From the NCBI GenBank assembly GCA_043809085.1, contig JAZDEG010000011.1, positions 214,272-278,271 on the forward strand: DNA of 64,000 nt, in the 5' to 3' direction. Source of the DNA: Pseudomonadota bacterium. Lineage in GTDB: Bacteria > Desulfobacterota > Desulfobulbia > Desulfobulbales > SURF-16. The notes beneath the pieces were generated by a model. It was not told the origin of the DNA. It made no database searches and worked only from the letters and a program-made list of their open reading frames with translations. Every line of letters starts with the position of its first letter. Position 1 is the first letter of the stretch. The position numbers and the translations under genes were made by a program. Shown one piece after another: positions 3,764 to 54,555 of this stretch.

Positions 3764-4753
3764 TCAATCTCTTTCCTGGTCAAACACTTTTCTCTTAATA
3801 AGAAAAGCTTTGTTGCCGCGGTGGATGCCGGGGGAGCCCATGTATTTGCGGATGCCGGAGACAAAGGCCGGCATCATTTCGTCTTTTCTTTTGTCAAGTT
3901 GGATAATGTCGCCGGGTTCAAGGCTCAGGATATCACCGGCAGGCAATAATGTTCTGCCCAGTTCCACTCTCAGGCCAACCGGGACATGCTTGATGTTCTC
4001 CGTCAGAATGCGTTTCAGGCTGATGTCTTCATCGCTCTGTTCTCTCTGGAAGGTGGTCATCAGCTTTTGTTTGACCGATTCAAGATTCGATAGGGGGATG
4101 CATGCGGTGATGCTGCCCACCGCGCGGTCCATATCTACCTCGTAGCGGTTGATGATGACCACGTCCTCGGGTTCGCAGATTTTTGCAAACTGCGGATTGA
4201 TTTCACTGCGGATGTGCTGAACCTTGATCGGCTGCAGGGAATACCAGGCCTTTTCCAAGTCGGTTAGAAGAAGATTGACAATGCGTTGGATCAAGCGTTG
4301 CTCGATGCCGGTGAAGTCACGTCCTTCAATCCGCACATTACGGGTGCCGCTACCGCCGAGGAAGCTTTCGACCAGAGCGAAAACGAGTTTCGGCTCAATG
4401 ACGAAAAGGGCATGACCGCGAAACGGATCCATCTTGAATATCTGCAGGCTGCTGGGAACAGGCAGAGTGCGGACAAAGGCGCCGAATCGTTCAAGTTCCA
4501 TGGGAACGGCGGTGATGTCGAGAATGCGTCTGAGCGCCGCCGATACAGAGGTTCTTATAGAGCGTAAAAACACATCGTTGATGGCCTCCATGGCCGGCAT
4601 TTTGACCTGGACGATGCGTTCCTGGCGTTTGAAGTCATAAATAGTGTATTCAAGCGACTCTTCTTCAAGGTGCTCTTCGGGCTCTTCAATGTCGCCGCCG
4701 GCAATCCCTTTTAATAGGGCATCAACTTCATCTTGGCTGAGGATCTGTTCCAT
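3764..4753 (-). CDS. fliM: flagellar motor switch protein FliM
   Basis: 329 aa. The N-terminal LSQDEVDALL CheY-P-binding motif is present, followed by FliM middle and C-terminal SpoA-like regions. Confidence 0.9.
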   Translation of the reverse strand: MEQILSQDEVDALLKGIAGGDIEEPEEHLEEESLEYTIYDFKRQERIVQVKMPAMEAINDVFLRSIRTSVSAALRRILDITAVPMELERFGAFVRTLPVPSSLQIFKMDPFRGHALFVIEPKLVFALVESFLGGSGTRNVRIEGRDFTGIEQRLIQRIVNLLLTDLEKAWYSLQPIKVQHIRSEINPQFAKICEPEDVVIINRYEVDMDRAVGSITACIPLSNLESVKQKLMTTFQREQSDEDISLKRILTENIKHVPVGLRVELGRTLLPAGDILSLEPGDIIQLDKRKDEMMPAFVSGIRKYMGSPGIHRGNKAFLIKRKVFDQERD

Positions 4754-4846: not shown

Positions 4847-5350
4847 TTACTGCACAACAAATTCGGAAAAATAGATGTTTTTGATTTTGTCCGGTTTTGT
4901 GACGCGGCTGAATCGTTCGAGCAGCTCATCTCTGATGCGGAGTTTGCCTTCCGGTGTCATCACCTCTTCAAAAGAGAGGCTGGTGAGCATCATGATAACA
5001 ATGTCTCGCAGCTTGGGTGCGAGCTTCGTTATCCGTTCCGATGTTTCCACCGTTTCAACTTCGATGCTGATCGTCATTTTGAGATAGCGGCTTCCTTTGG
5101 GGTCGGCAAGATTGACGACAAATGGGTCAAGGGGGACAATTTCTCCTACCGCAGGGAGGAGTTCAGCTTTCTGGTCGACAATTTCCTCCATTGGCGCGGA
5201 GGGCGGGGGGGCGAGGAATTTGGTGTAGGCAAAAAAACCGCCGCCTCCCAACAGGAGAATGACAAATCCCAAAATGATAAAGAGCATGATTTTTGATTTT
5301 TTTTTGGGCTGCTCTGTGCCGTCTGCTGCCTTGGCGTCAACGTCTGCCAT
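4847..5350 (-). CDS. fliL: flagellar basal-body-associated protein FliL
   Basis: 167 aa with a single N-terminal transmembrane segment. The conserved FVVNLADPKGSRYLKMTISIEV block is present, and the gene sits upstream of fliM. Confidence 0.85.
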   Translation of the reverse strand: MADVDAKAADGTEQPKKKSKIMLFIILGFVILLLGGGGFFAYTKFLAPPPSAPMEEIVDQKAELLPAVGEIVPLDPFVVNLADPKGSRYLKMTISIEVETVETSERITKLAPKLRDIVIMMLTSLSFEEVMTPEGKLRIRDELLERFSRVTKPDKIKNIYFSEFVVQ

Positions 5351-5410
5351 GGTGGTCTCTCCCCTGAAAAAAGATGTACCGCTGTTAATAGTGTCTGACC
5401 TTTGTCTCTA

Positions 5411-5425
5411 GCAAATATTATGCCA
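5411..5425 (-). promoter_or_regulatory. sigma-54 (-24/-12) type promoter upstream of fliL
   Basis: The reverse strand reads TGGCATAATATTTGC, which is GG-N10-GC with the exact consensus spacing TGGCAC-N5-TTGC. It lies about 60 nt upstream of the fliL ATG. Confidence 0.65.
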
Positions 5426-5702
5426 TAGTTGTATTGATTAGTAAATCGATGGTTAACACTTTGTTTTATTTAAAAGAGTTGCTTGCATGTGTCTGAATCG
5501 GACAGGGATGAGGTGGGGAATACAAAGGGGAAAGGTCATTTTTCTGACTTCCTGAGAAGTGAAAGTCAAAAATGCGACATGAATGAAGGAAGACGGCAAG
5601 GTTCAGCGGCATGAACACCGGTGACAAACAGAGGTATTTGTGGTAAACAAATCGCTCTTTAAAAATAGAAATATTAATCAGCACAATATGAGGAGAGTTG
5701 CA

Positions 5703-7622
5703 ATGGGAAAAACCGTTACCGAAAAGATTCTGGCTGACCACCTTGTTGAGGGGGCGATGGGCAAGGGGAAAGAGATCGGCATCCGTATTGATCAGACCTT
5801 GACCCAGGATGCCACCGGCACCATGGCCTATCTTGAGTTTGAGTCCATAGGGATCCCCCGGGTGCAGACGGAGTGTTCAGTCTGTTATGTGGACCATAAT
5901 CTGGTGCAGTCTGATTTCAAGAATGCGGATGACCACCGTTTTCTCCAGTCCATCGCCCACAAATACGGCCTGTTCTTCTCGCCGCCGGGCAACGGGATCT
6001 CCCATCAGATCAATCTGGAAAGGTTCGGTAAGCCAGGCAAGACCCTCCTCGGTTCAGACAGCCATACCCCCACCGGTGGAGGACTCGGCATGATTGCCAT
6101 TGGCGCCGGCGGGCTTGATGTGGCCATGGCCATGGCCGGCAAACCCTTCTATCTGGTCATGCCGAAGATTTTCGGTGTTAGGCTGACAGGCAAACTTTCC
6201 CCCTGGGTATCGGCCCGTGATGTGCTGCTTGAGCTCCTCCGGCAGCTAACCGTGAAAGGTGGTGTGGGTTACATCATGGAGTATTTCGGTCCTGGGATGA
6301 AAGAGCTGTCTGTTACCGATCGGGCATCGATCACCAATTTCGGTGCCGAACTCGGTGCAACCACCTCGGTGTTTCCTTCTGATGAAAATACCTTGAAATT
6401 TCTCAGAAGCCAGGGGCGCGAGGATTGCTGGGTTGAGATCATAGCTGATGAGGACGCCCGGTATGATGAGTTGCTGGAAATCGATATGTCTTCTCTTGAG
6501 CCTCTTATTGCCTGTCCTTCTTCACCGGACAATGTCGTCAAAGTGAAAGATGTCGCCGGTAAGCCCGTCTCACAGGTATTGGTTGGTTCCTGTTCCAATT
6601 CATCCCTGCGCGATCTGGTGGTTGTCTCCAAAGTATTAACCGGCAGGCAGGTCAACCATGAAGTGAGTTTTGAGGTCAATCCAGGCAGCCGTCAGGTTCT
6701 GGAAAATCTGACCGCCATGGGAGAAATGCTGCCGCTGATCCAAGCCGGGGCCCGCATTCATCAGGCAGGTTGTCTCGGCTGCATCGGCATGGGACAGGCA
6801 CCTTCCACCGGGACCATTTCCCTGCGCACCTTTCCCCGCAATTTCCCCGGCCGCAGCGGAACAGTTAATGATCAGGTCTATCTTTGCAGTCCGGAGGTGG
6901 CAGTTGCCGCTGCGATAACCGGAAAAATCACCGATCCTCGGGAGCTGGGTGAATATCCCGCTTTCACCCTGCCTGAAAAATATCTTCCCGGCGACTCCCG
7001 TATTGAGCCGCCACTTGCCGATGGCCGTGACGTTGCAATCGTGCGCGGACCCAATATCGCTCCCTTTCCCGCGTTTTCTCCCATCCCTGAAACCTGGCAG
7101 GGAACCGTTCTGCTCAAAACCGGGGACAACATCACCACAGATCACATCATGCCCGCCGGCGCCCAGGTCCTTCCCTTGCGCAGCAATATCCCGGCTATCA
7201 GCGAATTCGTTTTCAAGGCCCTTGACGAGAATTTCAGCAAACACGCCAGAGAGGCGGGTCACGGTATGATTGTCGGCGGAGAGAACTATGGGCAGGGGTC
7301 ATCCCGGGAACATGCAGCTCTGGCCCCCAGATATCTCGGTGTTGAGGTGAAAATCGTGAAAAGCTTTGCCCGTATTCATAAGGCAAATCTGATTAATTTT
7401 GGAATTCTGCCCCTGACTTTTGCCGATCCTGCCGATTATGATCTCGTCAAACAGGGATCGAAAGTTGTTATTTCCGATTTGCGAAAATTGCTGGAGAGCG
7501 GTGCGGAACGGCTTGCGGTTGAAATTGCCGGCCGTAAAATTAATGCGTTGCTCGATGTTTCCGACCGGCACCGGGCGATACTCCTTGCTGGTGGCCTGCT
7601 TAATTGGGCCAGGGGAAATTAA
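5703..7622 (+). CDS. acn: aconitate hydratase (short, about 640 aa, Aquifex/Thermotoga-type putative aconitase)
   Basis: Begins MGKTVTEKILADHL. Aconitase blocks are present (IDQTLTQDATG, GSDSHTPTGGGLGMIAIGAGG, the CLGCIG cluster ligands, and a swivel domain with GENYGQGSSREHAA). I prefer the ATG at 5703 (AGGAGA RBS) over the GTG at 5640. Confidence 0.85.
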   Translation: MGKTVTEKILADHLVEGAMGKGKEIGIRIDQTLTQDATGTMAYLEFESIGIPRVQTECSVCYVDHNLVQSDFKNADDHRFLQSIAHKYGLFFSPPGNGISHQINLERFGKPGKTLLGSDSHTPTGGGLGMIAIGAGGLDVAMAMAGKPFYLVMPKIFGVRLTGKLSPWVSARDVLLELLRQLTVKGGVGYIMEYFGPGMKELSVTDRASITNFGAELGATTSVFPSDENTLKFLRSQGREDCWVEIIADEDARYDELLEIDMSSLEPLIACPSSPDNVVKVKDVAGKPVSQVLVGSCSNSSLRDLVVVSKVLTGRQVNHEVSFEVNPGSRQVLENLTAMGEMLPLIQAGARIHQAGCLGCIGMGQAPSTGTISLRTFPRNFPGRSGTVNDQVYLCSPEVAVAAAITGKITDPRELGEYPAFTLPEKYLPGDSRIEPPLADGRDVAIVRGPNIAPFPAFSPIPETWQGTVLLKTGDNITTDHIMPAGAQVLPLRSNIPAISEFVFKALDENFSKHAREAGHGMIVGGENYGQGSSREHAALAPRYLGVEVKIVKSFARIHKANLINFGILPLTFADPADYDLVKQGSKVVISDLRKLLESGAERLAVEIAGRKINALLDVSDRHRAILLAGGLLNWARGN

Positions 7623-7887
7623 AAAAATTGTACCCTGCGTGCCCGCGAACCTGGCAAAGCAGTGAATATGGCTCTTTTGTTCCCTGGTTTACAGGGAATG
7701 CAGAGTGTTCAAAAAATTGAACAATGTATATTGTCTTGAAATCGCAGAAGATTTTCGTGAAAGATCAACATTGTGAAAGAAAGTTAAAAAAATTGTATTT
7801 TGTCGGGAGATGGTGATGCAGGGAAAGGGAGCGGATTTTCCCTTGCAGGACAAGGGAAAAGAAGAAAATATATATTTTTTTCTTGTG

Positions 7888-7902
7888 TGGCATGCCTGTT
7901 GC
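7888..7902 (+). promoter_or_regulatory. orphan sigma-54 (-24/-12) type promoter
   Basis: TGGCATGCCTGTTGC is a near-perfect match to TGGCAC-N5-TTGC. It sits in the 430-bp gap between acn and the DUF362 gene. Confidence 0.6.
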
Positions 7903-7913
7903 TTTAGAGATTA

Positions 7914-7990
7914 ATCAAGATAACAACTCTTATCTCCTTTCTCCAGAAAAAGGCCTATCCTGTCCCCCCAGGATTGGCCTTTTTCGTTTT
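7914..7990 (+). ncRNA. candidate sigma-54-dependent small RNA (about 77 nt) or terminated leader
   Basis: The predicted start is about 12 nt after the -12 GC. A stem-loop AGATAA/TTATCT lies at 7918-7935, a C/U-rich stretch CCTTTCTCC at 7936-7944, and a terminator hairpin with U-run at 7951-7990. Confidence 0.4.
7951..7990 (+). terminator. rho-independent terminator
   Basis: AGGCCTATCCTG / CAGGATTGGCCT form a 12-bp stem with 1 mismatch around a TCCCCC loop, followed by TTTTTCGTTTT. Confidence 0.7.
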
Positions 7991-8052
7991 ATGTCACAAC
8001 CTCCCCCTCAAAAAATCGACACAATCGACCTTTTTCTGCTGGTGAATCTGAA

Positions 8053-8982
8053 ATGAATATATCCTCGACCAGCGTGGCTATCCTCAAATGCCCCCATTAC
8101 GACAGAAAGGTGATCAAGGATTGTCTTACGGCAATTTTTCAGGCCCTGCCATTTACCTTTGCCGGTGGAGCTTCGATTCTGCTGAAGCCCAATCTCGTTT
8201 CCGGAATGGGTCATCGGGGATTGGCCTGCAGTCATCCGGAATTTGTCGCCGCAGCGGCGGAATGGTTTGTTGACCATGGTGCCAGAGTGTCTGTGGGTGA
8301 TTCCCCTGCGTTTGGCCGGGCGCCGGCGGTAATGGATGCCTGTGGCATATCGGGGAGCCTGAAAGGTCTGCCGGTTCGCAAAATTCATTTCAATAAAGGC
8401 CGAATGGTAACTTTGGCGAGCGGACTTGCTGTCAAGATTGCCGATGAGGCCTTGGATTGTGATCATCTCATTAACCTGCCAAGGGTCAAGGCCCATTCAC
8501 AGACCCTGGTGACCCTGGCAGTGAAAAACTATTTCGGCACTGTCAAGGGATTCAGTAAAGCCATTCTGCATCAGCGACTGGGCGGCAAAGAGGATATTTT
8601 TGCCCGGATGCTGGTTGATGTGGCGGAAATCCTTCCGGACGGGGTCAGCATCATCGATGGAATCGAGGCCATGCATCGCAGCGGCCCGATGGATGGCGAG
8701 CCCTTTCCGCTTGGAGTGGTGGCCGGGGCGAAAAATCCCGTCGCACTCGATAGTGCGATGCTTGAGGTGTTAGGGGTCAATCCGGAAAAAAGTCTGGTGT
8801 GGCGGGAAACCAGACGACGGAATCTTGCCGGTTGGCGGGATGGGGATCTTGTTTATCCGCTTCTGCGTCCTGATGATGTTGCGGTGACGGGATTTGTCGT
8901 GCCGGAGAGATTAAAGCCAATCCCTTTTCTGCCGCTTCAGGTTCTCAGAAGCATTTTAAAGCGCATTCGTGCGCAGTTGTGA
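8053..8982 (+). CDS. DUF362 domain-containing protein
   Basis: 309 aa. The pattern ILLKPNLV ... HPEFV ... GARVSVGDSP ... INLPRVKAHSQT is typical of DUF362. Confidence 0.6.
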   Translation: MNISSTSVAILKCPHYDRKVIKDCLTAIFQALPFTFAGGASILLKPNLVSGMGHRGLACSHPEFVAAAAEWFVDHGARVSVGDSPAFGRAPAVMDACGISGSLKGLPVRKIHFNKGRMVTLASGLAVKIADEALDCDHLINLPRVKAHSQTLVTLAVKNYFGTVKGFSKAILHQRLGGKEDIFARMLVDVAEILPDGVSIIDGIEAMHRSGPMDGEPFPLGVVAGAKNPVALDSAMLEVLGVNPEKSLVWRETRRRNLAGWRDGDLVYPLLRPDDVAVTGFVVPERLKPIPFLPLQVLRSILKRIRAQL

Positions 8983-9097: not shown

Positions 9098-9949
9098 GTG
9101 ACAAGTATGATGAAAACAGCCGCCCTTATGGCCGCTTTGACCGCTCTTTTTCTCGTTGGCGGTCAGGCGCTGGGCGGTCGCAGCGGTATGACTTTTGCCC
9201 TGATTATGGCCTTGGGGATGAATTTTTTTGCCTACTGGTTCAGTGATAAAATGGCCCTTGCCATGAGCCGTGCCCGCGAGGTGGCCGAGCATGAGGCGCC
9301 GGATCTTCATCAGATGGTGAATTTTCTGTCCAGCCGCGCCGAGCTGCCGAAACCGCGGGTTTATATTATTGACGATCATACTCCCAATGCCTTTGCCACA
9401 GGACGTAATCCGCAGCACGCGGCAGTCGCCGTTACTCGCGGATTGATGGAGCTTCTCAGTCGCGATGAACTGGAGGGCGTGCTGGCCCATGAGTTGGCGC
9501 ACATCAAAAATCGGGATATTCTGATCAGTTCCGTTGCTGCTGTCATGGCCGGCGCCATCAGTTATCTGGCGAGCATGGCCCAGTGGGCTATGTTTTTTGG
9601 CGGATTTCGCGGCAGCGACGATGAAGGTGAAGGAGGGGGCGGCATACTTGGAGGACTGGTGATGATGATCATCGCGCCCATTGCCGCAACCATTATTCAG
9701 CTGGCCATTTCCCGTAGCAGGGAATTCCAGGCAGATGCAACCGGGGCGAGCATCTGCGGGAGACCACATTCCCTGGCCAATGCTCTGGCCAAGCTTGAGC
9801 AGGGAAATCGCCGCCAACCGATGGATGTTAATCCGGCTACTGCCCAGATGTATATTGTCAACCCGCTTTCCGGTGGACAGATCGCCGGCCTTTTTGCCAC
9901 CCATCCCCCCATTCGCGAAAGAATTAACAGGTTGCTTTCCGTTGCCTGA
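9098..9949 (+). CDS. htpX: zinc metalloprotease HtpX (M48 family)
   Basis: Contains the HELAHIKNRD zinc motif and four transmembrane segments, and ends with the conserved HPPIRERI. GTG start with an AGGAGG RBS. Confidence 0.9.
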   Translation: MTSMMKTAALMAALTALFLVGGQALGGRSGMTFALIMALGMNFFAYWFSDKMALAMSRAREVAEHEAPDLHQMVNFLSSRAELPKPRVYIIDDHTPNAFATGRNPQHAAVAVTRGLMELLSRDELEGVLAHELAHIKNRDILISSVAAVMAGAISYLASMAQWAMFFGGFRGSDDEGEGGGGILGGLVMMIIAPIAATIIQLAISRSREFQADATGASICGRPHSLANALAKLEQGNRRQPMDVNPATAQMYIVNPLSGGQIAGLFATHPPIRERINRLLSVA

Positions 9950-10091: not shown

Positions 10092-10844
10092 ATGTATAAT
10101 CTTCAAGGAAAAGTCGCCCTGGTGACCGGAAGTTCAAGGGGAATCGGGCGGGCGATTGCCATGCGTTTTGCCGAAAGCGGCATTAATCTGGTGGTTAATT
10201 ATGTACGGCACAGGAGGGATGCCGAAGATACGGCCCGTGATATTGAAAAGGCCGGGGTGAAATGCCTTGTGGTCAAGGCCAACGTCGCCAATGATGAGGA
10301 TGTTCTCGCCATGTTCGAACAGATAAAACAAGAGTTCGGCCGCCTGGATATTCTGGTGAGCAATGCCGCCTCGGGAGTCCTGAAGCCGGTGATGGAGCTC
10401 AGTACGAGACATTGGAACTGGGCCATGGATATTAATGCCCGTGCCCTGCTTGTTCTTGCCCAGCAGGCGGTTCCTCTGATGAGTGAGGGGGGGCGTATTC
10501 TTGCGGTTTCCAGTCTGGGCGCGGTGCGGGCGGTGGAAAATTACACGGCGGTGGGCGCTTCCAAGGCGGCCTTGGAGTCCCTGGTACGGCATCTGGCGGT
10601 GGAGCTGGGGCCTAAGGATATAACGGTCAACACCATCAGTGCCGGCGCGGTGGATACCGAGGCTTTGAAAAAATTCCCCAACCGCATTCAGATACTGGAA
10701 ACCGCTTTAGAAAGAACACCGCTTGGTCGACTGACGACGCCTGAGGATGTTGCCGATCTTGCTCTTTTTCTCTGCAGTGACTATGCCAAGATGATTCACG
10801 GTCAGACGCTGGTTGTGGACGGCGGTTACGCCGTTCGGGCCTGA
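10092..10844 (+). CDS. short-chain dehydrogenase/reductase, FabL-like enoyl-ACP reductase family
   Basis: TGSSRGIGRAIA Rossmann motif and an NAASG block; 250 aa, resembling FabL. The substrate cannot be determined from sequence alone. Confidence 0.65.
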   Translation: MYNLQGKVALVTGSSRGIGRAIAMRFAESGINLVVNYVRHRRDAEDTARDIEKAGVKCLVVKANVANDEDVLAMFEQIKQEFGRLDILVSNAASGVLKPVMELSTRHWNWAMDINARALLVLAQQAVPLMSEGGRILAVSSLGAVRAVENYTAVGASKAALESLVRHLAVELGPKDITVNTISAGAVDTEALKKFPNRIQILETALERTPLGRLTTPEDVADLALFLCSDYAKMIHGQTLVVDGGYAVRA

Positions 10845-10866
10845 TTTTTCCGATGGTGTGCAAATA

Positions 10867-11475
10867 ATGGCGGGAGGATTTCACACAATTTGCCCCATGA
10901 TGTTAGCGTCGGCATCGCCCAGGCGCCAGCGCTTCCTGAAAGATCTCGGTCTTGAGTTTACTGTCCAGCCTGCCCTGGTTCATGAAAAAATCAAACAGGG
11001 CGAAAATCCCGAAAGTTTTGTTCTTCGCCTTGCCGGCGAAAAAGCGCAAGCTGTCGCTCGGCATAACCCGTCCTCCTGCATTCTGGCTGCGGACACCATC
11101 GTGGTTCTCGATGGGGAAATACTGGGGAAACCGCTGGATGATGCTGATGCCGAAAAAATGCTGACAAAAATGGCCGGGAAGTGGCATGATGTCTTGACAG
11201 GGTATTGCCTGTGCCGTGTTGCGGATGGACTTCTGCTGCGGCATGTGGTGACTACGAAAGTGCTTTTTCGTGATTTCGGCAGTGATTTGTGTCGCGCCTA
11301 TGTTCTGACCGGAGAACCGCGTGACAAGGCGGGCAGCTATGGCCTGCAGGGTCGTGGCGGCTTTCTGGTGGAAAGAATTGACGGTTCCTACAGCAATGTC
11401 ATTGGTTTGCCGGTGGCGGAGGTGGTGGCGGATCTGCTCAGGTTCGGCATTATATCCGCCAATATCGGCGAGTGA
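10867..11475 (+). CDS. maf: Maf-like nucleoside triphosphate pyrophosphatase
   Basis: Maf signatures are present: LASASPRRQRFL, ILAADTIV, DKAGSYGLQG, SNVIGLP. I prefer the ATG at 10867. Confidence 0.85.
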   Translation: MAGGFHTICPMMLASASPRRQRFLKDLGLEFTVQPALVHEKIKQGENPESFVLRLAGEKAQAVARHNPSSCILAADTIVVLDGEILGKPLDDADAEKMLTKMAGKWHDVLTGYCLCRVADGLLLRHVVTTKVLFRDFGSDLCRAYVLTGEPRDKAGSYGLQGRGGFLVERIDGSYSNVIGLPVAEVVADLLRFGIISANIGE

Positions 11476-11501
11476 ACGAAAGGAAAGGTGAGAAAGGCGT
11501 T

Positions 11502-12185
11502 ATGGATGAAAAAATGTTTGATCAAGGGGTGAGGCTGGCGCTTGAGTTGGGTATTCGCGTGAAAATCGAGATTGAGGGAGTGGACATCCCCCTTGAGAGT
11601 TCTTTTTGCGGGTTTGTTGATAATTATATCATCATCACCCCTCCTTCCCCTTACCATCAGATACAGCATAAGCTTTTTGATGGGGCGGAACTGGTTGTCC
11701 GCTATTTTTACCAGGGAACCATATACGCTTTTCAGACGAAGCTTTTCGCCCAGACCGATAAGCCCGTCAAACTCCTTTTTATCTACTATCCGAAGCTCAT
11801 CCAGAAAAGCGAACTGCGCAGCGAGAAAAGATCCTGCTGTTATATTCCCGCCGTCCTTGAGGTGGCCGAAAAGGAAAATAACGGTACAATTGTCGATATC
11901 GCCAAATCAGGTTGTCACTGTCTTGTCCGGGCAAAAAATAATAAAAGGCTGATTTCGTATAAAATCGACGACAAGGTCAAGCTTACCTGTAAATTCCCCG
12001 GGGTAAAAACCCCTCTGGAAATCATCGGTGTGGTGAAAAATCTGCGTAACAGCAGATATGAGATAAATGTAGGACTGCAGTTTCATGAGAACACCGCCGA
12101 GGTTACCCAGAAAATTATCGGCTGGTATCTTTCCACCATCGAGAAGTTTGTCTCCGCCCAGGAGATTAAACTCAAAATATCCTGA
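11502..12185 (+). CDS. YcgR-like PilZ domain protein (PilZN + PilZ)
   Basis: About 227 aa. It has an RxxxR motif (RSEKR) and a variant of D/NxSxxG (DIAKSG), with an N-terminal YcgR-type beta-barrel-like region. Confidence 0.6.
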   Translation: MDEKMFDQGVRLALELGIRVKIEIEGVDIPLESSFCGFVDNYIIITPPSPYHQIQHKLFDGAELVVRYFYQGTIYAFQTKLFAQTDKPVKLLFIYYPKLIQKSELRSEKRSCCYIPAVLEVAEKENNGTIVDIAKSGCHCLVRAKNNKRLISYKIDDKVKLTCKFPGVKTPLEIIGVVKNLRNSRYEINVGLQFHENTAEVTQKIIGWYLSTIEKFVSAQEIKLKIS

Positions 12186-18986: not shown

Positions 18987-20372
18987 CTATACATCAATGC
19001 TTCGATTGATTTCAATCTTGTGTTTCTTCAACCTCTTCCACAGGGTTACCCTGCTGATGCCGAGTGTTCGGGCTGCTTCAGATTTGTTGCCGTCCGAGGC
19101 CTTCAGGGCCTGCAGCAACCGTTGCCGTTCATCTTCCGTCTTGTTGATCCTGGATTTGACAAGCGGGATATTTAATATTTTGGGATGACTGGCAAAATGT
19201 GAGGGGAGGTGACCGGGGAGAATGAGCCCCCCGGGGCAGAGGACATATGCGTATTCGATGACGTTGATCAATTCTCTGACGTTGCCGGGCCAGTTGTAAT
19301 GATTGAGGAGTTCCATGGCTTCCCTTGATACGCCCTTTATCTCTTTACCGGTCTTCAGGGAGGTTCTTTCAATGAAGGCTTCAATCAGCAGGGGGATGTC
19401 CTCTTTTCTTTCACGCAGGGAAGGTGTGTAGATGGGGATAACGCCGATGCGGTAGTAGAGGTCTTCCCGGAAAAGGCCTTCTTTGATCAGTTTTTGCAGA
19501 TTTTTGTTTGTTGCGGAAATGATCCGCACATTAATGGGGATGGGCTGATGATCGCCGACCCGTTCTATTTCCTGCTCCTGGAGAACGCGTAGAAGTTTGG
19601 TCTGCAGAGAATGGGGCATGTCGCCGATCTCGTCAAGAAAAATGACTCCGCCGTTGGCCGCCTCAAAACGACCGATGCGGTCTGATGCGGCACCGGTAAA
19701 AGACCCCTTGGCGTGGCCGAACAGTTCGCTTTCCAAAAGGTTGTCGTTTAACGCCGCACAGTTGACTTTGATGTATGGTTTATTCTTTCTGTTGCTTAAC
19801 CTGTACAGCGCCGAAGCAATCAGTTCTTTGCCGGTACCGCTTTCACCGTAAATGATAGCCGGTGAATCCGATTGAGCCGCACTTCTTGTGAGGTCGAATA
19901 TCTTGCGCATCATGGGAGCATTGCCGATTAGCCCCTGGAATCCGTCTTCGTGGTGCAGATGGCGCTTCAGGAAATTGATGACCCTGTCCTTTTCCTCAAG
20001 GACGCTCAGGTCGGTGAGGTTTTCCACTCCGGCCAGGATATTGCCGTCATCATCTTTTAAAATGGCGGCATTTTTGAAAACAGAAATCAGAGAACCGTCC
20101 TTGCGGCGAAATGAGCATTTCAGGCCTCTTACCTCTCCTTTCTGGAAAAGGCCGCAGAATTTCCCCTTTCCCTTTTGCTTCGTACCGAAACAGGAGTCGC
20201 ATTCCAGGACATCACATTTTTTGCCGATTAATTCTTCTTTTGTATACTGCAGCATCTCTTCCAGGGCTTTGTTTATATAAAGAATTTTGCCCGATGAATC
20301 GATCAGCATGAGGCCTTCGGTCATTGTTTCGATGATTTTGTTGCCGTTCTCACCGGAAAACAGGTCAAGCAT
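18987..20372 (-). CDS. sigma-54-dependent transcriptional activator (PAS - AAA+ - Fis-type HTH, no receiver domain)
   Basis: Walker A GESGTGKE, the GAFTGA-type loop ELFGHAKGSFTGA, and a C-terminal HTH AARTLGISRVTLWKRLKK. The N-terminal PAS domain contains CDVLECDSC...C. Confidence 0.9.
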   Translation of the reverse strand: MLDLFSGENGNKIIETMTEGLMLIDSSGKILYINKALEEMLQYTKEELIGKKCDVLECDSCFGTKQKGKGKFCGLFQKGEVRGLKCSFRRKDGSLISVFKNAAILKDDDGNILAGVENLTDLSVLEEKDRVINFLKRHLHHEDGFQGLIGNAPMMRKIFDLTRSAAQSDSPAIIYGESGTGKELIASALYRLSNRKNKPYIKVNCAALNDNLLESELFGHAKGSFTGAASDRIGRFEAANGGVIFLDEIGDMPHSLQTKLLRVLQEQEIERVGDHQPIPINVRIISATNKNLQKLIKEGLFREDLYYRIGVIPIYTPSLRERKEDIPLLIEAFIERTSLKTGKEIKGVSREAMELLNHYNWPGNVRELINVIEYAYVLCPGGLILPGHLPSHFASHPKILNIPLVKSRINKTEDERQRLLQALKASDGNKSEAARTLGISRVTLWKRLKKHKIEINRSIDV

Positions 20373-20414
20373 GGTCTTTCTCCAATTGTCGAATATTTTC
20401 GATATTGTAGCATG

Positions 20415-20460
20415 TGTTAATCGTTAACGCACATGTTAATTCGGTGTTAATTGTGTTAAT
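20415..20460. promoter_or_regulatory. four direct TGTTAAT repeats (candidate activator-binding UAS)
   Basis: TGTTAAT occurs at 20415, 20434, 20445 and 20454, and an 8-bp palindrome CGTTAACG lies at 20422-20429. The cluster is 107-150 bp upstream of the sigma-54 promoter and 43-88 bp upstream of the activator ATG. Confidence 0.5.
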
Positions 20461-20566
20461 TGGTGAACGTTGCATTTTGTCTGCCGGGAAAGATTGATCA
20501 AACGAATGTTTTGTGTAACATCTCAATATGTCTAGTAAAATTTTTATTTCTTTTTTTTATTTCTTC

Positions 20567-20581
20567 TGGCGTCAAACTTGC
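20567..20581 (+). promoter_or_regulatory. sigma-54 (-24/-12) type promoter of the octaheme cytochrome gene
   Basis: TGGCGTCAAACTTGC has GG-N10-GC with consensus spacing. It lies about 120 nt upstream of the ATG at 20702. Confidence 0.6.
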
Positions 20582-20701
20582 TTTTTTGAGGGGCGGAATC
20601 ACTGGAAGGGGTGATTTTTTGAAATTGTTTGATCTGCTGAAAAGTTATTGCGTGCCTGTTTCCGGCATAAAACATTCAAAAATCAGGAGGGAATTGGAAG
20701 T

Positions 20702-22138
20702 ATGAAAAAGTACAATGTTTTGTTGTCACTGTTTCTGGTGGCGGCATTTGCTGCCCCGGGTTTCGGCAATGCCGATGAAAACCATAAGGGAATCAGCGGG
20801 CCGTTTGCCACACCCATGGATGTGACCAAAAAATGCCTTGAGTGTCATGAGAATGCTGCAAAAGATGTGATGGTAACTTCTCACTGGACCTGGACTCTGG
20901 AACAGAATGTGCCGGGGCAGGGCAAGGTGCAGAGGGGCAAGAAAAATACCATTAATAATTTCTGTATTTCCATCAACTCGAACTGGCCGCGTTGTACAAG
21001 CTGTCATATCGGGTACGGCTGGAAGGATGCGAGTTTTGATTTCAGCGACGAAAGCCGGGTGGATTGCCTTGTCTGTCACGATACAACCGGAACATATGTG
21101 AAACCTCCCGCCGGAGCAGGTATGCCGGCAGGATTCACCGGAAAGCCTGGCATGGACAAGAACCCCGTTGATCTGGTGACGGTCGCCCGGAATGTCGGCA
21201 AGCCGGGCCGGGAGGATTGTCTCGGTTGCCATGCCAATGGTGGCGGCGGCAATAATGTCAAGCACGGCGATATTGACCAGTCGCTGATCAAGCCGACCAA
21301 GGAAATCGATTTCCACATGGGAACCGACAGCCTGAATTTTTCCTGTCAGGAATGTCATTCCGGTTCAGGCCACCACCTTCGCGGCAATGCGCTGCTTGTT
21401 TCTCCGGCCGGCAATAATCCGGTCTCCTGTACCCAGTGTCATGATGAGAAACCCCATACCGAGGCACTCTTGAACAGTCATGTGGACACGGTTTCCTGCC
21501 AGGCCTGTCATATCCCTGTCTTTGCCAAGAAGGATGCCACCAAGATGAGTTGGGACTGGTCCCTGGCCAGGAAAACGACAAAAGAGCAGGCCGAGGAAAA
21601 AGATGCCCATGGTCACGCAGTTTTCTTGGCAAAAAAAGGGCGTTTCACCTATGAGGAAAAGGTTGTGCCGACTTATGCCTGGTACAACGGAAGCGCTGGT
21701 GCTTACAGATTGGGCGACAAAATTAATCCGTCCGAAGTGACGAATCTGAACTATCCCCTGGGTGATATCCATGATGCCAATGCCAGGATTCACCCTTTTA
21801 AGGTGCACACGGGCAAACAGATTTATGATACCAAAAACAAATACTTCATCACCCCGAAAATTTTCGGCTTTGCCGGTGACGAAGCAGCGTTCTGGGAAAC
21901 CTTTGACTGGCACAAGGCTTCCGTTGCCGGCATGAAGGAAAGCGGTCTCGATTACAGTGGTGAGTATGGCTTTGCCGCCACCGCGACGTACTGGCCGATT
22001 AATCATATGGTTTCCGCCAAAAACGAAACAGTTGGCTGTCTTGATTGTCACGGCGAAAAAGGGCGTCTGGACTGGACAGGCCTTGGCTATCAAGGAGATC
22101 CAATGGTTACGAAGGGAGGGGCGCGGGCAAAAAAATAA
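20702..22138 (+). CDS. otr: octaheme c-type cytochrome, tetrathionate reductase (Otr) family
   Basis: Signal peptide plus exactly eight CxxCH motifs (CLECH, CTSCH, CLVCH, CLGCH, CQECH, CTQCH, CQACH, CLDCH). About 478 aa, matching the Otr architecture. Confidence 0.8.
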   Translation: MKKYNVLLSLFLVAAFAAPGFGNADENHKGISGPFATPMDVTKKCLECHENAAKDVMVTSHWTWTLEQNVPGQGKVQRGKKNTINNFCISINSNWPRCTSCHIGYGWKDASFDFSDESRVDCLVCHDTTGTYVKPPAGAGMPAGFTGKPGMDKNPVDLVTVARNVGKPGREDCLGCHANGGGGNNVKHGDIDQSLIKPTKEIDFHMGTDSLNFSCQECHSGSGHHLRGNALLVSPAGNNPVSCTQCHDEKPHTEALLNSHVDTVSCQACHIPVFAKKDATKMSWDWSLARKTTKEQAEEKDAHGHAVFLAKKGRFTYEEKVVPTYAWYNGSAGAYRLGDKINPSEVTNLNYPLGDIHDANARIHPFKVHTGKQIYDTKNKYFITPKIFGFAGDEAAFWETFDWHKASVAGMKESGLDYSGEYGFAATATYWPINHMVSAKNETVGCLDCHGEKGRLDWTGLGYQGDPMVTKGGARAKK

Positions 22139-22175
22139 TTTTCACATTGCCCTTTACGGTTTGATTGATATGATA

Positions 22176-22211
22176 AAGTCGGGTTCCTTGTTCATGGAAC
22201 CCGACTTTTTT
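22176..22211 (+). terminator. rho-independent terminator after otr
   Basis: AAGTCGGGTTCC / GGAACCCGACTT form a perfect 12-bp stem followed by TTTTTT. Confidence 0.8.
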
Positions 22212-22245
22212 GTTGCGTAGGCTAGAAATTCAAGAGGGAGACAAT

Positions 22246-22527
22246 ATGGCTGAAAATGTAGACGATATCACAATTGATTATGAAGAGGATGGCGTGTTGA
22301 TCGTCAAGGAGATTGATAAGGTTATTCTTTCCAAAGGGGCCTGGTCGACGATAATTTTTCGTTACCAGCAGTTTGACCGCAAAAAGGAGGAGTACAGCGA
22401 CGATCGCTATACCATCCGTCGGTATAGAAAAATAAGCGGATCCTATCAGGCACAGGGAAAGTTTAATATTTCAAGCAAAGAACAGGCGCAGAAGATTGTC
22501 ACCGCCCTGCAGGGTTGGATTGTCTGA
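22246..22527 (+). CDS. hypothetical protein
   Basis: 93-aa ORF with a GAGGGAGA RBS. I do not recognise a domain. Confidence 0.4.
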   Translation: MAENVDDITIDYEEDGVLIVKEIDKVILSKGAWSTIIFRYQQFDRKKEEYSDDRYTIRRYRKISGSYQAQGKFNISSKEQAQKIVTALQGWIV

Positions 22528-22577
22528 TCAGGCGCTTGGCTTCAAAGGGGTAAAGTTTTTTTCAGGAGAATGAGGAT

Positions 22578-23864
22578 ATGAGAAAGATTCTGAGTATTAC
22601 GGCAATCAGTATGGTCGCCGTAGCGTCCAATGGCTGGGGGGCCGAGGGCGGTGATCTGGAAAAACAGGTGCGGGAACTGGTCCGTCAGAACAGGATGTTG
22701 ATTGAGAGGGTGACTGATCTGGAGAAGCGACTGGAGATTCAGGAAAGCCCGGCGAAAAGACACTACGGTCAGCCCGCAGTTGTCGACCAGGAAGGACAAG
22801 CCGGGGAGGTGGATGAGGATGTTGCCGTCCTTGGCTCTCAGGAACAGGGGCAGGTTGCGGAAGAGCCGGGTCCGTCGATTCTTGGTGATCTGCGGGATCG
22901 CGTCGAGCTTGGCGCCCTGGTTGAGGTTGAGTCAAATATAAGTGAGTCGTTTGACAATGAGGATGCCGGGGATATTACCCTTGCCACGGTTGAGATAGGG
23001 CTTGACGCCCGAATCTCCTCATGGTCTGACGCCCATCTTGTCTTTCTTTATGAAGGTGGGGAGGAAGATGAGCATGTGCTGCTTGACGAGGGCACCATTA
23101 CCCTTTCTGATTCGGAAAAAATACCTGCCTATTTGACGTTGGGGAAAATGTATCTCCCCTTTGGTTCATATGAAAGCAATATGATTTCTGATTCGTTGCC
23201 TCTGGAGATCGGCGAGATTAATGATACCGCCGCTCTTGTCGGCTTTGAGGCACGAGGATTCTCCGGGGCGATATTTGTTTTTAACGGGGACATCAATGAA
23301 ACCGATAAGGAAGATACGATTGACGTTTACGGTGCAAGCCTTGGGTATGTTCATGAATGCGAAAGGCTGTCCTTTCGTGCCGGGGTGGACTGGATGAATA
23401 ATATCGCTGACACCGATGGGCTGGGTGATAATCTGTCGGAGCGTGAAGTTGATGATGCGGATCAAATTGACGATTATGTCGAGGGGGTGGCCCTCCATCT
23501 GCAGCTCGATTATGGTGCTTTTTCATTCATGGCGGAATACGTGGCCGCACTTGATGCATTTCAGTCCGGCGAGATCGCTTTTGGTAACCGCGGAGCCGAG
23601 CCCGAGGCATGGAGTTATGAGATCGGCATGACCTGTCAGTTGCTTGATCGGGAAACCGTGTTCGCCCTGGGTTACCAGGGAACGGATGAGGCGCTGGCGT
23701 TTGAGTTGCCGGAAGATCGCTATCTCGCGGCGGTCCGTATGTATCTTTTTGAAAACACCAGTCTGGCCCTGGAATATCTTTACGATAAAGATTATGATAA
23801 ATCCGAGGATGGGAGCGGGAATCATGCTCATTCCGCCACCATGCAGCTTGCCGTGGAGTTTTGA
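22578..23864 (+). CDS. outer-membrane beta-barrel porin with N-terminal coiled coil (LbtU-family-like siderophore porin)
   Basis: Signal peptide, then a coiled coil (LEKQVRELVRQNRMLIERVTDLEKRLE), then alternating beta-strand pattern ending in aromatic ...LAVEF. The family assignment is from memory of LbtU-like porins. Confidence 0.5.
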   Translation: MRKILSITAISMVAVASNGWGAEGGDLEKQVRELVRQNRMLIERVTDLEKRLEIQESPAKRHYGQPAVVDQEGQAGEVDEDVAVLGSQEQGQVAEEPGPSILGDLRDRVELGALVEVESNISESFDNEDAGDITLATVEIGLDARISSWSDAHLVFLYEGGEEDEHVLLDEGTITLSDSEKIPAYLTLGKMYLPFGSYESNMISDSLPLEIGEINDTAALVGFEARGFSGAIFVFNGDINETDKEDTIDVYGASLGYVHECERLSFRAGVDWMNNIADTDGLGDNLSEREVDDADQIDDYVEGVALHLQLDYGAFSFMAEYVAALDAFQSGEIAFGNRGAEPEAWSYEIGMTCQLLDRETVFALGYQGTDEALAFELPEDRYLAAVRMYLFENTSLALEYLYDKDYDKSEDGSGNHAHSATMQLAVEF

Positions 23865-23899
23865 TTTCAGGCGGAATGTTTTTTGGGGAAAAGGAGGAG

Positions 23900-24112
23900 A
23901 TGATGAAGACCGATTACAGGATTGATTATATCAGCCTGACTGCGGCCCATTTTACCACCTTTCCCCAGACCCCGCAGAGTGAGAAGATTCTCCAGGTGAA
24001 TTACAGCGATCAGGCAGACCGGGCCCAGTCCGTAAAATCAGCTATCGGCAACAGAGCGCGGGAAAAAGCCGCGGCCCAGGTGACAGAGGGCGGGTTCAGT
24101 GCTTATATTTAA
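23900..24112 (+). CDS. hypothetical small protein
   Basis: About 70-aa ORF immediately after the porin gene with an AAGGAGGA RBS. No recognisable domain. Confidence 0.35.
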   Translation: MMKTDYRIDYISLTAAHFTTFPQTPQSEKILQVNYSDQADRAQSVKSAIGNRAREKAAAQVTEGGFSAYI

Positions 24113-45748: not shown

Positions 45749-45825
45749 GCACCCGTAGCTCAGCTGGATAGAGTACCGGACTACGAATCCGATGGTCGCA
45801 TGTTCGAATCATGCCGGGTGCGCCA
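45749..45825 (+). tRNA. tRNA-Arg (anticodon ACG), CCA encoded
   Basis: Folded by hand. Acceptor GCACCCG/CGGGTGC, D arm GCTC-AGCTGGATA-GAGT, anticodon loop CTACGAA, T arm GCATG-TTCGAAT-CATGC, discriminator G, then CCA. Confidence 0.9.
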
Positions 45826-50599: not shown

Positions 50600-51823
50600 C
50601 TACTGAACATCCCAACTAAAGCTCAAGTCCCCTACGCGCTGGCTGGTTGCGATAATGTTGCCGGTCATGGAGTTGAGCCACAACAGGCCGGTCGAGTTGT
50701 TGCGAAGCAGAAGATCGCTCTTGCCGTCGCCGGTGAAATCAGCGACCTGATCAACCGACCAAGCCGTATTCAGCGCCCCGACATTCTGGCTCGCCGTAAT
50801 GGCATTGCCGTTCATGGTGTAGAGCCACAGCTGGCCGGTCGCAGTGTTGCGGAGCAGGATGTCTGCTTTCTGGTCGCCGGTCATGTCTGAAGATGATGCA
50901 ATCTCCCAAGCCAGACTCAGGCCGCCAACCTTTTCGCTTGCCGTGATGATATTGCCGTTCATGGTGTAAAGCCAGAGAAGGCCGGTGTTGCTGTTGCGCA
51001 GAAGGATGTCCGCCTTGTTGTCGCCATTGAAATCCTCAACGCTAACTATCTTCCAGGCCAGATCGAGAGCGCCGATGTTCTGGCTTGCTGTAATGGTTGC
51101 TCCATTCATCGTATAGAGCCAGAGATGGCCGGTTGTTTTGTTGCGTAAGAGGATGTCTGCTTGCTGGTCGCCGTTCAGATCAGAAGTCGCTGAGACTTCC
51201 CAAGCCAGACTCAGGCCGCCAACTTGCCTGCTATCCGTGACAACATTGCCATTCATGGTGTAAAGCCACAGTTGCCCAAGATCTGCATGGCGAAGCAGGA
51301 TGTCGGCCTTGCCGTCACCTGTAAGATCAGCGATGCCGGCCATTTTCCAGACGGGATTCAAGGCCCCGACATTGTCGGTTTTATCGATTGATGCTCCGTT
51401 CATTTCATACATCCAGAGTTGGCCGGATCCTATGTTGCGGAGTAAAACATCGGCCTTGCCGTCAACTGAAAAATCATTTTTTACGGCTTTCGGACATGTG
51501 CAGACAACTTCCGCGGAATAATCACTTTCAAGCCCGGTGGTATCATAGGCTGTTGCTGCGAAATAGAAAGTCTTGCCCGCAGGCAAATCTGTTACCTTAT
51601 ATGTTACTTTGCCGTTGGTAATTGCCGGATTGCCGACATCGATTGTTCCGGTATAGCTGCGAGACGCGCTGCCGTAATAAATTTTATACCCGGCAAGATT
51701 CGGATCAGAATTCGGGGTCCAGGAAAAACTCAGTTCCGCAGACTGGCACGAATTTGAGAACATGAAAAAAAGAAACAGAAAAAAAAGACGGAATGGGGTG
51801 AAAGGGGAAATTGTTCTCTGCAT
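50600..51823 (-). CDS. secreted FN3 + six FG-GAP/VCBS-type repeat protein (paralog 1)
   Basis: Signal peptide, then an FN3-like domain (SFSWTPNSDPNLAGYKIYYG...YFAATAYDTTGLESDYS), then six tandem 49-aa repeats of the form DxxGDGKADILLRNxxTGQLWLYTMNG.... Confidence 0.8.
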   Translation of the reverse strand: MQRTISPFTPFRLFFLFLFFMFSNSCQSAELSFSWTPNSDPNLAGYKIYYGSASRSYTGTIDVGNPAITNGKVTYKVTDLPAGKTFYFAATAYDTTGLESDYSAEVVCTCPKAVKNDFSVDGKADVLLRNIGSGQLWMYEMNGASIDKTDNVGALNPVWKMAGIADLTGDGKADILLRHADLGQLWLYTMNGNVVTDSRQVGGLSLAWEVSATSDLNGDQQADILLRNKTTGHLWLYTMNGATITASQNIGALDLAWKIVSVEDFNGDNKADILLRNSNTGLLWLYTMNGNIITASEKVGGLSLAWEIASSSDMTGDQKADILLRNTATGQLWLYTMNGNAITASQNVGALNTAWSVDQVADFTGDGKSDLLLRNNSTGLLWLNSMTGNIIATSQRVGDLSFSWDVQ

Positions 51824-51877
51824 AGTAGCACCTCTTTTGATCCCAGCAGATCAGAAAAGAAGCGCTGATCTTACCAG

Positions 51878-51892
51878 GCAACCTCGCTACCA
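51878..51892 (-). promoter_or_regulatory. sigma-54 (-24/-12) type promoter of FG-GAP paralog 1
   Basis: The reverse strand reads TGGTAGCGAGGTTGC, GG-N10-GC with consensus spacing. It lies about 55 nt upstream of the ATG at 51823. Confidence 0.55.
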
Positions 51893-52520
51893 TATCTCTG
51901 GAAAAGTACAGAGACTTAGGCCGATGGCTTTGCGTCCCACTCTTTCAAGTGGTTTGCCTTTTTCAAGTAAAATTCAAAAACAGTTGATTTTAACAAAAGT
52001 CCCATGAAGACAGGGATGACTAGAAGATTAGCAATAACCGTTCCATTGATAATGAATAATCTCCATAATTGACCAGGTTGCGCATTATGTGCTTAATTTG
52101 AGAGTGAAAAAAATGAAGTGATATGCCCACGATTTTTTCGATGTGGGCTTTTCCATGCGAAGAAATACGCAACAGGAAAAGATAAATTAAAAAAAAATTA
52201 TCATTTTGAGCCACAAATTAAATTTAATTAAGTGATTGAGCCGAAAAAAATGGAAAAGTCTTGCCTTTGTGTAAAGCGAGAAGTCGAGCCATACAGCAGA
52301 GAGAGGTATTGTCCACACAACAATTCGGTGGGCCATCCGGGGAGCAACCGGTGTTTTCAAGAGCCGCAAGGGAAAAAATCAGCGAGGTTGGGAGATGGTG
52401 GAATGGGCGGTTGAAAACGCCAGGGCACATTTCAACCGCTCATCATTCAAAAACCTTTTGTAAATGCGTGATTAATTGAGGTCGGACGGGTTTACTTCGA
52501 TTAGCGCATAAAACACGATA

Positions 52521-53741: not shown

Positions 53742-53809
53742 ATTTTTGGTTGCACTACTTATAGAGGGGACGCGCAGCAGGCCAGATAAAGAAGTGATGA
53801 TCTTGCCAG

Positions 53810-53824
53810 GCAACCTCGCCGCCA
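53810..53824 (-). promoter_or_regulatory. sigma-54 (-24/-12) type promoter of FG-GAP paralog 2
   Basis: The reverse strand reads TGGCGGCGAGGTTGC. It occupies the same position and has the same -12 half as the paralog 1 promoter. Confidence 0.55.
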
Positions 53825-54555
53825 TATCTCTGTTGTAGTTTCAGAAACGCAGGCCTAGGTTTTACGTCCCACTTTTTTTTAAGTGGTTTGCCTTTTCAGG
53901 TAAAATTTAACGACTGTTTATGTTAACGAGAGTGTCGGGGAAATATTGCCGCAAACTAAAAGCAAAAATCGTTCCGTCAAGACGGAATGATTTGTGAAAA
54001 AAAATTATATTCTGCAATGTTCACCCAGTGTATAGCGTAACATGCTAAAATAACAAGTTGTTTTTTGAAGACACTTGATAGTATAAAGAGAGCGGCAGTG
54101 AAAAAAATAAACAAACAAGAAAACAAACCAGCTTGAGCGGACCCGATTAATGAACTCAATGATTGAGTATACTATAAATGCGGTCGAGAAAAAGCCAGGG
54201 ATGTCGCAAGTCGGCGACATCGTGCTGGGCGGGGGCTGAGGGCAAATAACATGCGCAATGAGCCGCTTCTCACAAGTGTTGTCGCGAATTACCGACATCT
54301 TTTGCCGGGTACGAAGTGTGCGTATTTCTTATGCAGAATAGGCACTTGTCTCGATTGGTGATACAATATTACTATTTTTTATGTAGAATATTGCCAAAAG
54401 TTGTCAGCTTTTCGGGTCCAGAATGGTCCCCAAAATGCAAACAGTGTGATAATGTGTAAATTCGAACACTTTTGAACGAGGATTTGCCTGATGTCAGAAG
54501 AAACGAAGGCGCTATTTTTCGAGTTCAAAGCAATGATCGCCCTGGAAGCCGTCTA

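Follow-up and report, generated by a model that had tools for sequence, protein, structure and literature searches.

The Qrr small RNAs (sRNAs) of Vibrio depend on sigma-54 and LuxO for their transcription, and in RsaE/RoxS of Firmicutes and RepG of Helicobacter C/U-rich seeds pair with G-rich ribosome-binding regions of mRNAs. The order Desulfobulbales includes Desulfurivibrio and the cable bacteria, and most of its members are represented only by metagenome-assembled genomes. To our knowledge, almost nothing has been reported about RNA regulators in this order. Here we describe a predicted sRNA gene of about 75 nucleotides (nt), which is located directly upstream of a gene encoding a DUF362 protein in a 64,000-nt stretch of a Desulfobulbales genome (contig JAZDEG010000011.1). 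The whole stretch is referred to as the window, and positions are counted from its first nucleotide. The element is composed of a sigma-54 promoter and a short transcript with a 5′ hairpin, an unpaired CU-rich tract, and an intrinsic terminator, and it is preceded by three palindromic boxes that are candidate activator sites.

The element resembles the Qrr sRNAs in that it is predicted to give rise to a short RNA dependent on sigma-54 and an activator, with a conserved unpaired region that presumably pairs with ribosome-binding sites. However, it occurs in one copy per locus, has two hairpins instead of four, is tied to a downstream gene, and has no match in Rfam. RsaE/RoxS and RepG share with it unpaired pyrimidine-rich motifs, including a C-rich terminator loop, but belong to unrelated families with unrelated promoters, and no homology to them was detected. 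The glmY gene is a sigma-54-dependent sRNA gene with three sites for the activator GlrR more than 100 bp upstream (PMC3045617). The organization of the Enterobacteriaceae GlmY/GlmZ system is similar to that of the element in the window: a stand-alone small-RNA gene with a sigma-54 promoter, three palindromic upstream sites, and an intrinsic terminator (PMC3045617). The differences are in the lineage, in the lack of a match to Rfam models, and in the upstream sites, which have the form TGTC-N10-GACA in the case of GlrR, whereas the boxes described here have the form GTWCAA-N4-TTGWAC. Furthermore, GlmY sequesters a protein and GlmZ activates glmS, and neither acts through a tract resembling an anti-Shine-Dalgarno sequence. 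CJnc230 of Campylobacter jejuni is an RpoN-dependent sRNA of the flagellar hierarchy that is described as linked to a flagellar operon (PMC11187230). The element in the window is also predicted to be sigma-54-dependent and lies next to flagellar genes, beside the fliL-fliM operon. It differs from CJnc230, as described there, in having its own promoter, with boxes unlike those of the neighboring fliL.

A literature search for sigma-54 and small RNAs in Desulfobulbales found nothing. All 4227 Rfam models were compared with the whole window at the gathering threshold and with positions 7550–8150 permissively, and no family matches the RNA region. The best sub-threshold matches within 7550–8150, Thr_leader with 21 bits (55 required) and SurA with 20 bits (100 required), are driven by the terminator. 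The lack of an Rfam match, together with the outcome of the literature search, indicates that the element represents a new RNA family within the known type of sigma-54-dependent sRNAs.

The conservation of the unit formed by the promoter and the RNA was established by comparison with related genomes. Syntenic loci were gathered through homologues of the DUF362 protein and contig look-ups. By its DUF362 protein, the organism belongs among metagenome-assembled genomes of Desulfobulbales. A genome scan with one genome per species, for which the 22-mer TCTCCTTTCTCCNGAAAAAGGC served as a query, returned 25 loci. Twenty-three of them are from Desulfobulbales species with Desulfurivibrionaceae or Desulfobulbaceae-type genomes, and the remaining two, from Oscillibacter and Aminicenantes, are chance matches without promoter and terminator that score at most 18 bits. 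A scan of metagenomes gave 32 loci, 17 of which are true copies according to a covariance model of the RNA (76–103 bits), and a genome scan with back-translated DUF362 peptides found no relatives. In total, there are 33 distinct RNA sequences, which form three subfamilies, and the unit is kept in 40 loci besides that of the window. With the covariance model, every locus yields a single copy, and neither a paralogue nor a second copy of the RNA is detected in the window.

Sequence conservation is high within the unit and low around it. In subfamily A, which includes the RNA of the window, identity to the window amounts to 90–99% for the RNA, 62–78% for the DUF362 coding DNA, and 51–61% for the 250 nt that precede the promoter. 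In loci with DUF362 protein identities of 57–78%, hardly any change is seen in the promoter or between AGATAAC and the end of the terminator, and the remaining spacer is unalignable. Because the unit is almost unchanged across approximately 24 uncultured Desulfobulbales species, it is very likely that the non-coding RNA gene of about 75 nt is a real regulatory RNA, previously undescribed but of a known general type. There is little doubt, judging from the sequence comparisons, that a conserved and functional short RNA element with a putative sigma-54 promoter exists. A preliminary description of the window, made from its sequence alone, had suggested that a sigma-54 promoter directs the synthesis of a short RNA with its own terminator, and had proposed a comparison with relatives. 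In this comparison, the suggested unit was recovered in the 23 species genomes and 17 metagenome contigs, with conserved promoter and terminator, compensatory changes in the terminator stem, and flanks that are far less conserved.

It is mainly the 5′ hairpin that distinguishes the three subfamilies. This hairpin is formed by AGAUAA/UUAUCU in subfamily A, by (U)GAGU-NNUA-ACUC(A) in subfamily B, and by AAGAGU-GAUA-ACUCUU in subfamily C. The hairpins of subfamilies B and C have the same register, and their basal pair is swapped from A-U to U-A. The hairpin is kept as a feature rather than position by position, since subfamily A does not fit the register of the other two (61% of cells pair). The subfamilies also differ in the -12 element of the promoter, which is TTGC in subfamilies A and C and TTGT, TTGA, or ATGT in subfamily B.

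The promoter sequence TGGCATGCCTGTTGCT conforms at 11 of 12 positions to the consensus TGGCACG-N4-TTGCW, with GG at -24 and GC at -12 separated by a 10-nt spacing. In the 64-kb window, there are two matches to the related pattern TGGCAYN5TTGCW, compared to 0.22 expected, and the second match is the promoter of fliL (5425–5410, minus strand). The near-consensus -24/-12 element TGGCATGCCTGTTGC that was pointed out previously at 7888–7902 is indeed present there, rare in the window, and conserved in relatives. The geometry of the promoter is fixed, as the distance of TGGCAY to the RNA is constant in all 33 variants. DUF362 orthologues that are not preceded by the RNA (loci L013 from Thiovibrio, L015, and L016; at most 56% identity) also have no sigma-54 promoter, indicating that in one clade the promoter and RNA were inserted upstream of DUF362 as a single unit. 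From these sequence features, we infer that the transcription depends on sigma-54 and an activator. The window also encodes one enhancer-binding protein and contains further sigma-54-type promoters.

The predicted transcription start is at 7913–7914, approximately 12 nt downstream of the promoter, and the conservation sets in 2–4 nt later. The 77-nt RNA has a predicted folding energy of -27.7 kcal/mol (z = -7.0), which was not reached by any of 200 shuffled sequences. The minimum-energy fold represents 46% of the ensemble and is identical to the centroid, and the covariance model assigns 101.8 bits to positions 7913–7992. The fold is exactly that of the preliminary description, including the 6-bp stem AGATAA/TTATCT, the single-stranded tract, and the terminator at the same positions; however, the 5′ stem in this form is restricted to subfamily A, and the other subfamilies use another register. 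The arrangement of a 5′ hairpin, unpaired CU-rich tract, and terminator is common to the predicted folds of all 33 sequences. This predicted arrangement, with the tract in the position of the seed, is typical of base-pairing sRNAs.

The CU-rich tract is an invariant part of the RNA. Neither the 26 rows of alignment A2 nor the 33 distinct sequences show any change in TCTCCTTTCTCC (7933–7944). Nucleotides 7936–7945, of which 7936–7944 have the sequence CCTTTCTCC, are unpaired in the predicted fold, and the tract is unpaired in the predicted folds of all 33 sequences. The invariant parts can be summarized as ACUC-W-UAUCUCCUUUCUCC-N-GAAAAAGGC and, in the terminator, the C-rich loop. Six Cs are present in this loop in subfamily A as well as in subfamily B, and five in subfamily C, with the single exception of L024.

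The structure of the terminator is demonstrated by compensatory substitutions. Its helix is formed by 17 pairs, in which 97.2% of the alignment cells are paired, and six of the pairs are changed on both sides. The covariation score of 0.237 compares to 0.157 for shuffled alignments, none of which (0/500) scored as high, and the score falls sharply when the partners are slid relative to each other. The hairpin is followed by TTTTTCGTTTT. A simple scan calls the terminator on both strands, because the A-tract upstream of the hairpin mirrors the T-tract.

Upstream of the promoter, relatives contain a 16-bp palindrome GTWCAA-N4-TTGWAC (in the window GTWCAA-AAAA-TTGWAC) at approximately -100, -175, and -265. 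Box 1 of the window has two mismatches to GTWCAAAAAATTGWAC, and in most relatives it is kept at -257 to -292. Box 2 has no mismatches to the consensus, and the corresponding boxes of relatives are at -164 to -186. Box 3 is at -97 to -101 in most loci and at -90 to -116 overall, including the loci of subfamily B. A motif scan of the window gave eight matches with at most three mismatches, compared to 2.65 expected, and the top three are boxes 1–3. The 9-mer AAAAAATTG occurs five times in the whole window, three of them within the 180-bp stretch covered by the boxes. Three conserved candidate sites are thus located in the region approximately 80–300 bp upstream of the promoter in which activator sites were sought.

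The preliminary description had placed the activator site at an imperfect palindrome at 7817–7847. The palindrome is present at this position, but it is only partly conserved, and its right arm belongs to another inverted repeat, at 7836–7860. It was set aside in favor of boxes 1–3, which, based on their better conservation, are likely the better candidates. The arms of the 7836–7860 repeat co-vary in relatives, for example, CCTTAT/ATAAGG in L026 and CCCCTAT/ATAGGGG in L039. The repeat may serve as a site for a regulator, as a bend, or as a hairpin, and between it and the -24 element there is a conserved T-run immediately 5′ of the latter.

The sigma-54 promoter of fliL, TGGCATAATATTTGCT (5410–5425, minus strand), has upstream boxes of the form GTCA-N6-TGAC, such as GTCAGAAAAATGAC, at approximately 5530–5600, and these boxes are kept in L011, L014, and L017. 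They fit the pattern of the Pseudomonas FleQ consensus GTCaNTAAATTGAC (PMC8125075, PMC6120874). Shared regulation of the RNA and fliL was rejected because of the different boxes, and different activators probably act on the two promoters. The sole enhancer-binding protein encoded in the window, a PAS-AAA-HTH protein (18987–20372), is an unlikely activator of the RNA. It is divergent from an operon encoding a multihaem cytochrome, a protein from a 105-amino-acid open reading frame (ORF), an LbtU-like porin, and a protein from a 70-amino-acid ORF (18987–24112, including the gene of the enhancer-binding protein). The intergenic region of this cytochrome/porin operon has its own sigma-54-like promoter TGGCGTCAAACTTGCT (20567–20582) and four TGTTAAT repeats (20415–20460) rather than GTWCAA boxes. 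The arrangement of the enhancer-binding protein, cytochrome, and porin genes is kept in L075 and L076, on contigs that also carry the RNA copies of these genomes.

We propose, with moderate confidence, that the element is an activator-dependent sigma-54 sRNA gene whose CU-rich tract pairs with ribosome-binding sites, and that read-through of its terminator feeds the DUF362 operon. According to this mechanism, an enhancer-binding protein that is not encoded next door would bind the three 16-bp boxes and switch on sigma-54 RNA polymerase at the promoter. Transcription would start near 7913–7914 and mostly end at the intrinsic terminator. The released RNA, with its small 5′ hairpin, invariant unpaired tract, and terminator hairpin with the invariant C-rich loop, is expected to accumulate, and the tract would pair with purine-rich ribosome-binding sites of mRNAs and block translation initiation. 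The read-through fraction would be the mRNA of the DUF362, M48 peptidase, SDR, and Maf genes, and the element would thus be both an sRNA gene and a 5′ leader. Candidate targets were sought among 627 candidate start regions in the window, in which the background of duplex energies is -7.8 ± 3.8 kcal/mol, with 0.6% at or below -18 kcal/mol. The top-ranked regions belong to adjacent genes, the 70-codon ORF (ATG at 23900, -22.5 kcal/mol) and the LbtU-like porin gene (22578, -19.4 kcal/mol). In L075 and L076, relatives that have the RNA and the cytochrome/porin operon on one contig, the duplex energies are -20.4 and -9.6 kcal/mol for the small ORF and -17.7 and -14.9 kcal/mol for the porin-like gene.

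Several observations weigh against the proposed mechanism. In one relative the best candidate targets of the window stay complementary, but in another much of the complementarity is gone. Strong ribosome-binding sites give good scores with any CU-rich tract, and the DUF362 start region of L013, which has no RNA, also gives -18.0 kcal/mol. Since this score can be attributed to a strong ribosome-binding site alone, the argument for DUF362 as a target is weakened. The strict linkage to DUF362 suits a purely cis-acting role equally well. The canonical GC at -12 is absent from the promoters of subfamily B, which have TTGTA or TTGAA instead, and the only enhancer-binding protein of the window appears to serve its own neighboring promoter and not that of the RNA. 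In addition, all carriers of the element are uncultured metagenome-assembled genomes.

The relationship of the RNA to the DUF362 gene bears on the choice between the possible explanations. In all 26 non-redundant loci that were examined first, a DUF362 orthologue is positioned on the same strand directly downstream of the RNA, and the spacer between the T-tract and the start codon is shortest in L029 (13 nt) and longest in L040 (263 nt). In the window, the spacer to the DUF362 ATG at 8053 is 62 nt long. No sigma-70-like promoter was found in 7990–8052. As spacers of 13–62 nt are too short to accommodate a promoter, DUF362 is probably transcribed through the terminator. Such read-through would supply the DUF362 operon and make the element physically the leader of this operon, as expected for a sequence positioned 5′ of a gene with no intervening promoter. 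The preliminary description had offered a trans-acting sRNA and a terminated leader of DUF362 as alternatives. These are not exclusive, because spacers as short as 13 nt in relatives force co-transcription, and the RNA may act in trans, in cis, or in both ways. It is conceivable, though less probable, that the element is purely a cis-acting leader. The element would then be the 5′ untranslated region of a sigma-54-dependent DUF362 operon and would set its output by termination and, in loci with long spacers, by folding of the CU-rich tract on the ribosome-binding site, and the short RNA would arise as a by-product of termination, without a function of its own. In addition to the invariable position and the short promoter-less spacers, this explanation agrees with the whole-leader folds of seven loci (L017, L021, L023, L025, L032, L034, and L035), in which the tract pairs just before the DUF362 start codon. 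The duplex energies of the tract with the DUF362 ribosome-binding region in long-spacer loci are -12.6 to -27.1 kcal/mol. However, in the window and the other short-spacer loci, complementarity between the tract and the region around the DUF362 start codon is absent (-4.5 to -12.9 kcal/mol), and the tract is invariant even there, indicating that something else constrains it. The invariant C-rich loop is unnecessary for termination, and in L017 a second terminator-like hairpin and approximately 140 nt precede DUF362. Moreover, no alternative antiterminator fold or ligand-binding aptamer was found, as the terminator fold dominates the ensemble and folding of the alignment yields only the terminator. 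A riboswitch or attenuator with alternative folds was rejected, because there is no competing structure and no riboswitch or leader family reaches the threshold.

The extreme conservation, which concerns the sequence and not only the structure of the RNA, could also be explained if the pyrimidine tract and the C-rich loop were bound by a chaperone, ribosomal protein S1, a termination factor, or ribosomes, so that the RNA acts by binding a protein or as a decoy. The search for targets in the window and two relatives, which gave no convincing conserved mRNA, is consistent with this possibility. We nevertheless consider it improbable, since the RNA does not contain the repeated protein-binding motifs of CsrB-type sponge RNAs, but one copy of each element, and its architecture is the classic layout of a base-pairing sRNA. 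A further possibility, which appears doubtful to us, is that the RNA mimics an anti-Shine-Dalgarno sequence in two ways: the tract would be a cis lock on the DUF362 ribosome-binding site in transcripts that pass the terminator, and the 75-nt product would compete in trans with ribosomes for strong ribosome-binding sites. The tract has CUCCUUUCU in common with the 3′ tail of the 16S rRNA known from Bacillus subtilis. Chance juxtaposition of a promoter and a terminator, a protein-coding region, or a feature of the minus strand can hardly be credited as explanations. Although a 57-codon ORF with a TTG start (7883–8056) formally covers the region, neither an internal AUG nor an ORF signal was found within the RNA, the indels in the spacer are not multiples of three, and the stem substitutions are compensatory, and coding potential was therefore rejected. 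The conservation ends at the terminator, and the reverse strand scores only 28 bits, on the symmetrical terminator. Together with the presence of the unit in the 40 further loci, these comparative data effectively refute the explanations by chance or coding, and the non-coding nature of the RNA is evident from them. The activator-dependent sRNA with read-through into the DUF362 operon is thus the explanation that we prefer.

The analysis yields a well-defined sRNA family, which is strongly conserved, comprises 33 distinct sequences, and is described by a covariance model. The clear sigma-54 promoter and the candidate activator-binding motif may be used to define the regulon and find the activator. 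The predicted use of one transcription unit as both an sRNA gene and an operon leader would be a natural example of such an organization, and the element offers the first regulatory handle on the uncharacterized DUF362 cluster beside the flagellar genes. If the RNA did compete with ribosomes as an anti-Shine-Dalgarno mimic, a slice of translation would be under the control of a sigma-54 activator in a motility-associated neighborhood of Desulfobulbales.

Table 1. Predicted sRNA gene, its upstream elements, and neighboring genes in the window.
Feature	Position	Strand	Remarks
Box 1, ATTAAAAAAATTGTAC	7618–7633		candidate enhancer-binding-protein site; approximately -265; overlaps the aconitase stop codon
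Box 2, GTTCAAAAAATTGAAC	7707–7722		candidate activator site; approximately -177; perfect 16-bp palindrome
Box 3, GTTAAAAAAATTGTAT	7783–7798		candidate activator site; approximately -101
Imperfect palindrome, TGCAGGGAAA-N10-TTTCCCTTGCA	7817–7847		left arm poorly conserved in relatives
Inverted repeat, TTTTCCCTTG-N5-CAAGGGAAAA	7836–7860		-52 to -28; between boxes and promoter
Sigma-54 -24/-12 promoter, TGGCATGCCTGTTGCT	7888–7903	+	11/12 consensus positions
Predicted small RNA	7914–7990	+	approximately 73–77 nt; start from promoter geometry, end from T-tract
5′ hairpin, AGAUAA-CAACUC-UUAUCU	7918–7935	+	subfamily A register; arms 7918–7923 and 7930–7935
CU-rich tract, UAUCUCCUUUCUCC	7931–7944	+	candidate seed; resembles anti-Shine-Dalgarno sequence
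Intrinsic terminator	7946–7990	+	stem 7946–7985; C-rich loop UCCCCC 7963–7968; T-tract 7980–7990
fliM	3764–4753	-	
fliL	4847–5350	-	
Aconitase gene	5640–7622	+	stop codon 7620–7622
Aconitase-DUF362 spacer	7623–8052		430 nt; contains the predicted RNA gene
DUF362 gene	8053–8982	+	Pfam PF04015, E = 2.3e-45
M48 peptidase gene	9098–9949	+	
SDR gene	10092–10844	+	
Maf gene	10813–11475	+	
PilZ/YcgR-like gene	11472–12185	+	

The loci differ in the region preceding DUF362. The short-spacer loci (the window at 8053, L003, L006, L009, L022, and L026) have a DUF362 start with little or no recognizable Shine-Dalgarno sequence and a pyrimidine-rich spacer, and the long-spacer loci have a long purine-rich DUF362 ribosome-binding region. 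The second terminator-like hairpin of L017 is AAAAGCCCGCCAGTGCCCGATTGCACTGACGGGCTTTTAGCGTTTT and is positioned at 2858–2905, between the RNA terminator and DUF362. Some relatives have an aconitase gene between fliL and the RNA, and others do not (L011/L012 2855–4000; L013; L014; L017). In relatives without the aconitase gene, the promoters of fliL and the RNA are divergent and separated by a spacer of 0.8–1.1 kb.

The window contains a single tRNA gene, tRNA-Arg (ACG), at 45749–45825 on the plus strand. Two cyclic di-GMP-I riboswitches are positioned on the minus strand at 51874–51968 (84 bits) and 53806–53902 (48 bits). They precede genes of paralogous FG-GAP/fn3 proteins (50600–51823 and 52521–53825), and a sigma-54-like element is positioned approximately 50 nt upstream of each of them, TGGAACGGTTATTGCT (52030–52045) and CGGAACGATTTTTGCT (53961–53976), respectively. 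Sigma-54 promoters may thus feed the cyclic di-GMP riboswitches.

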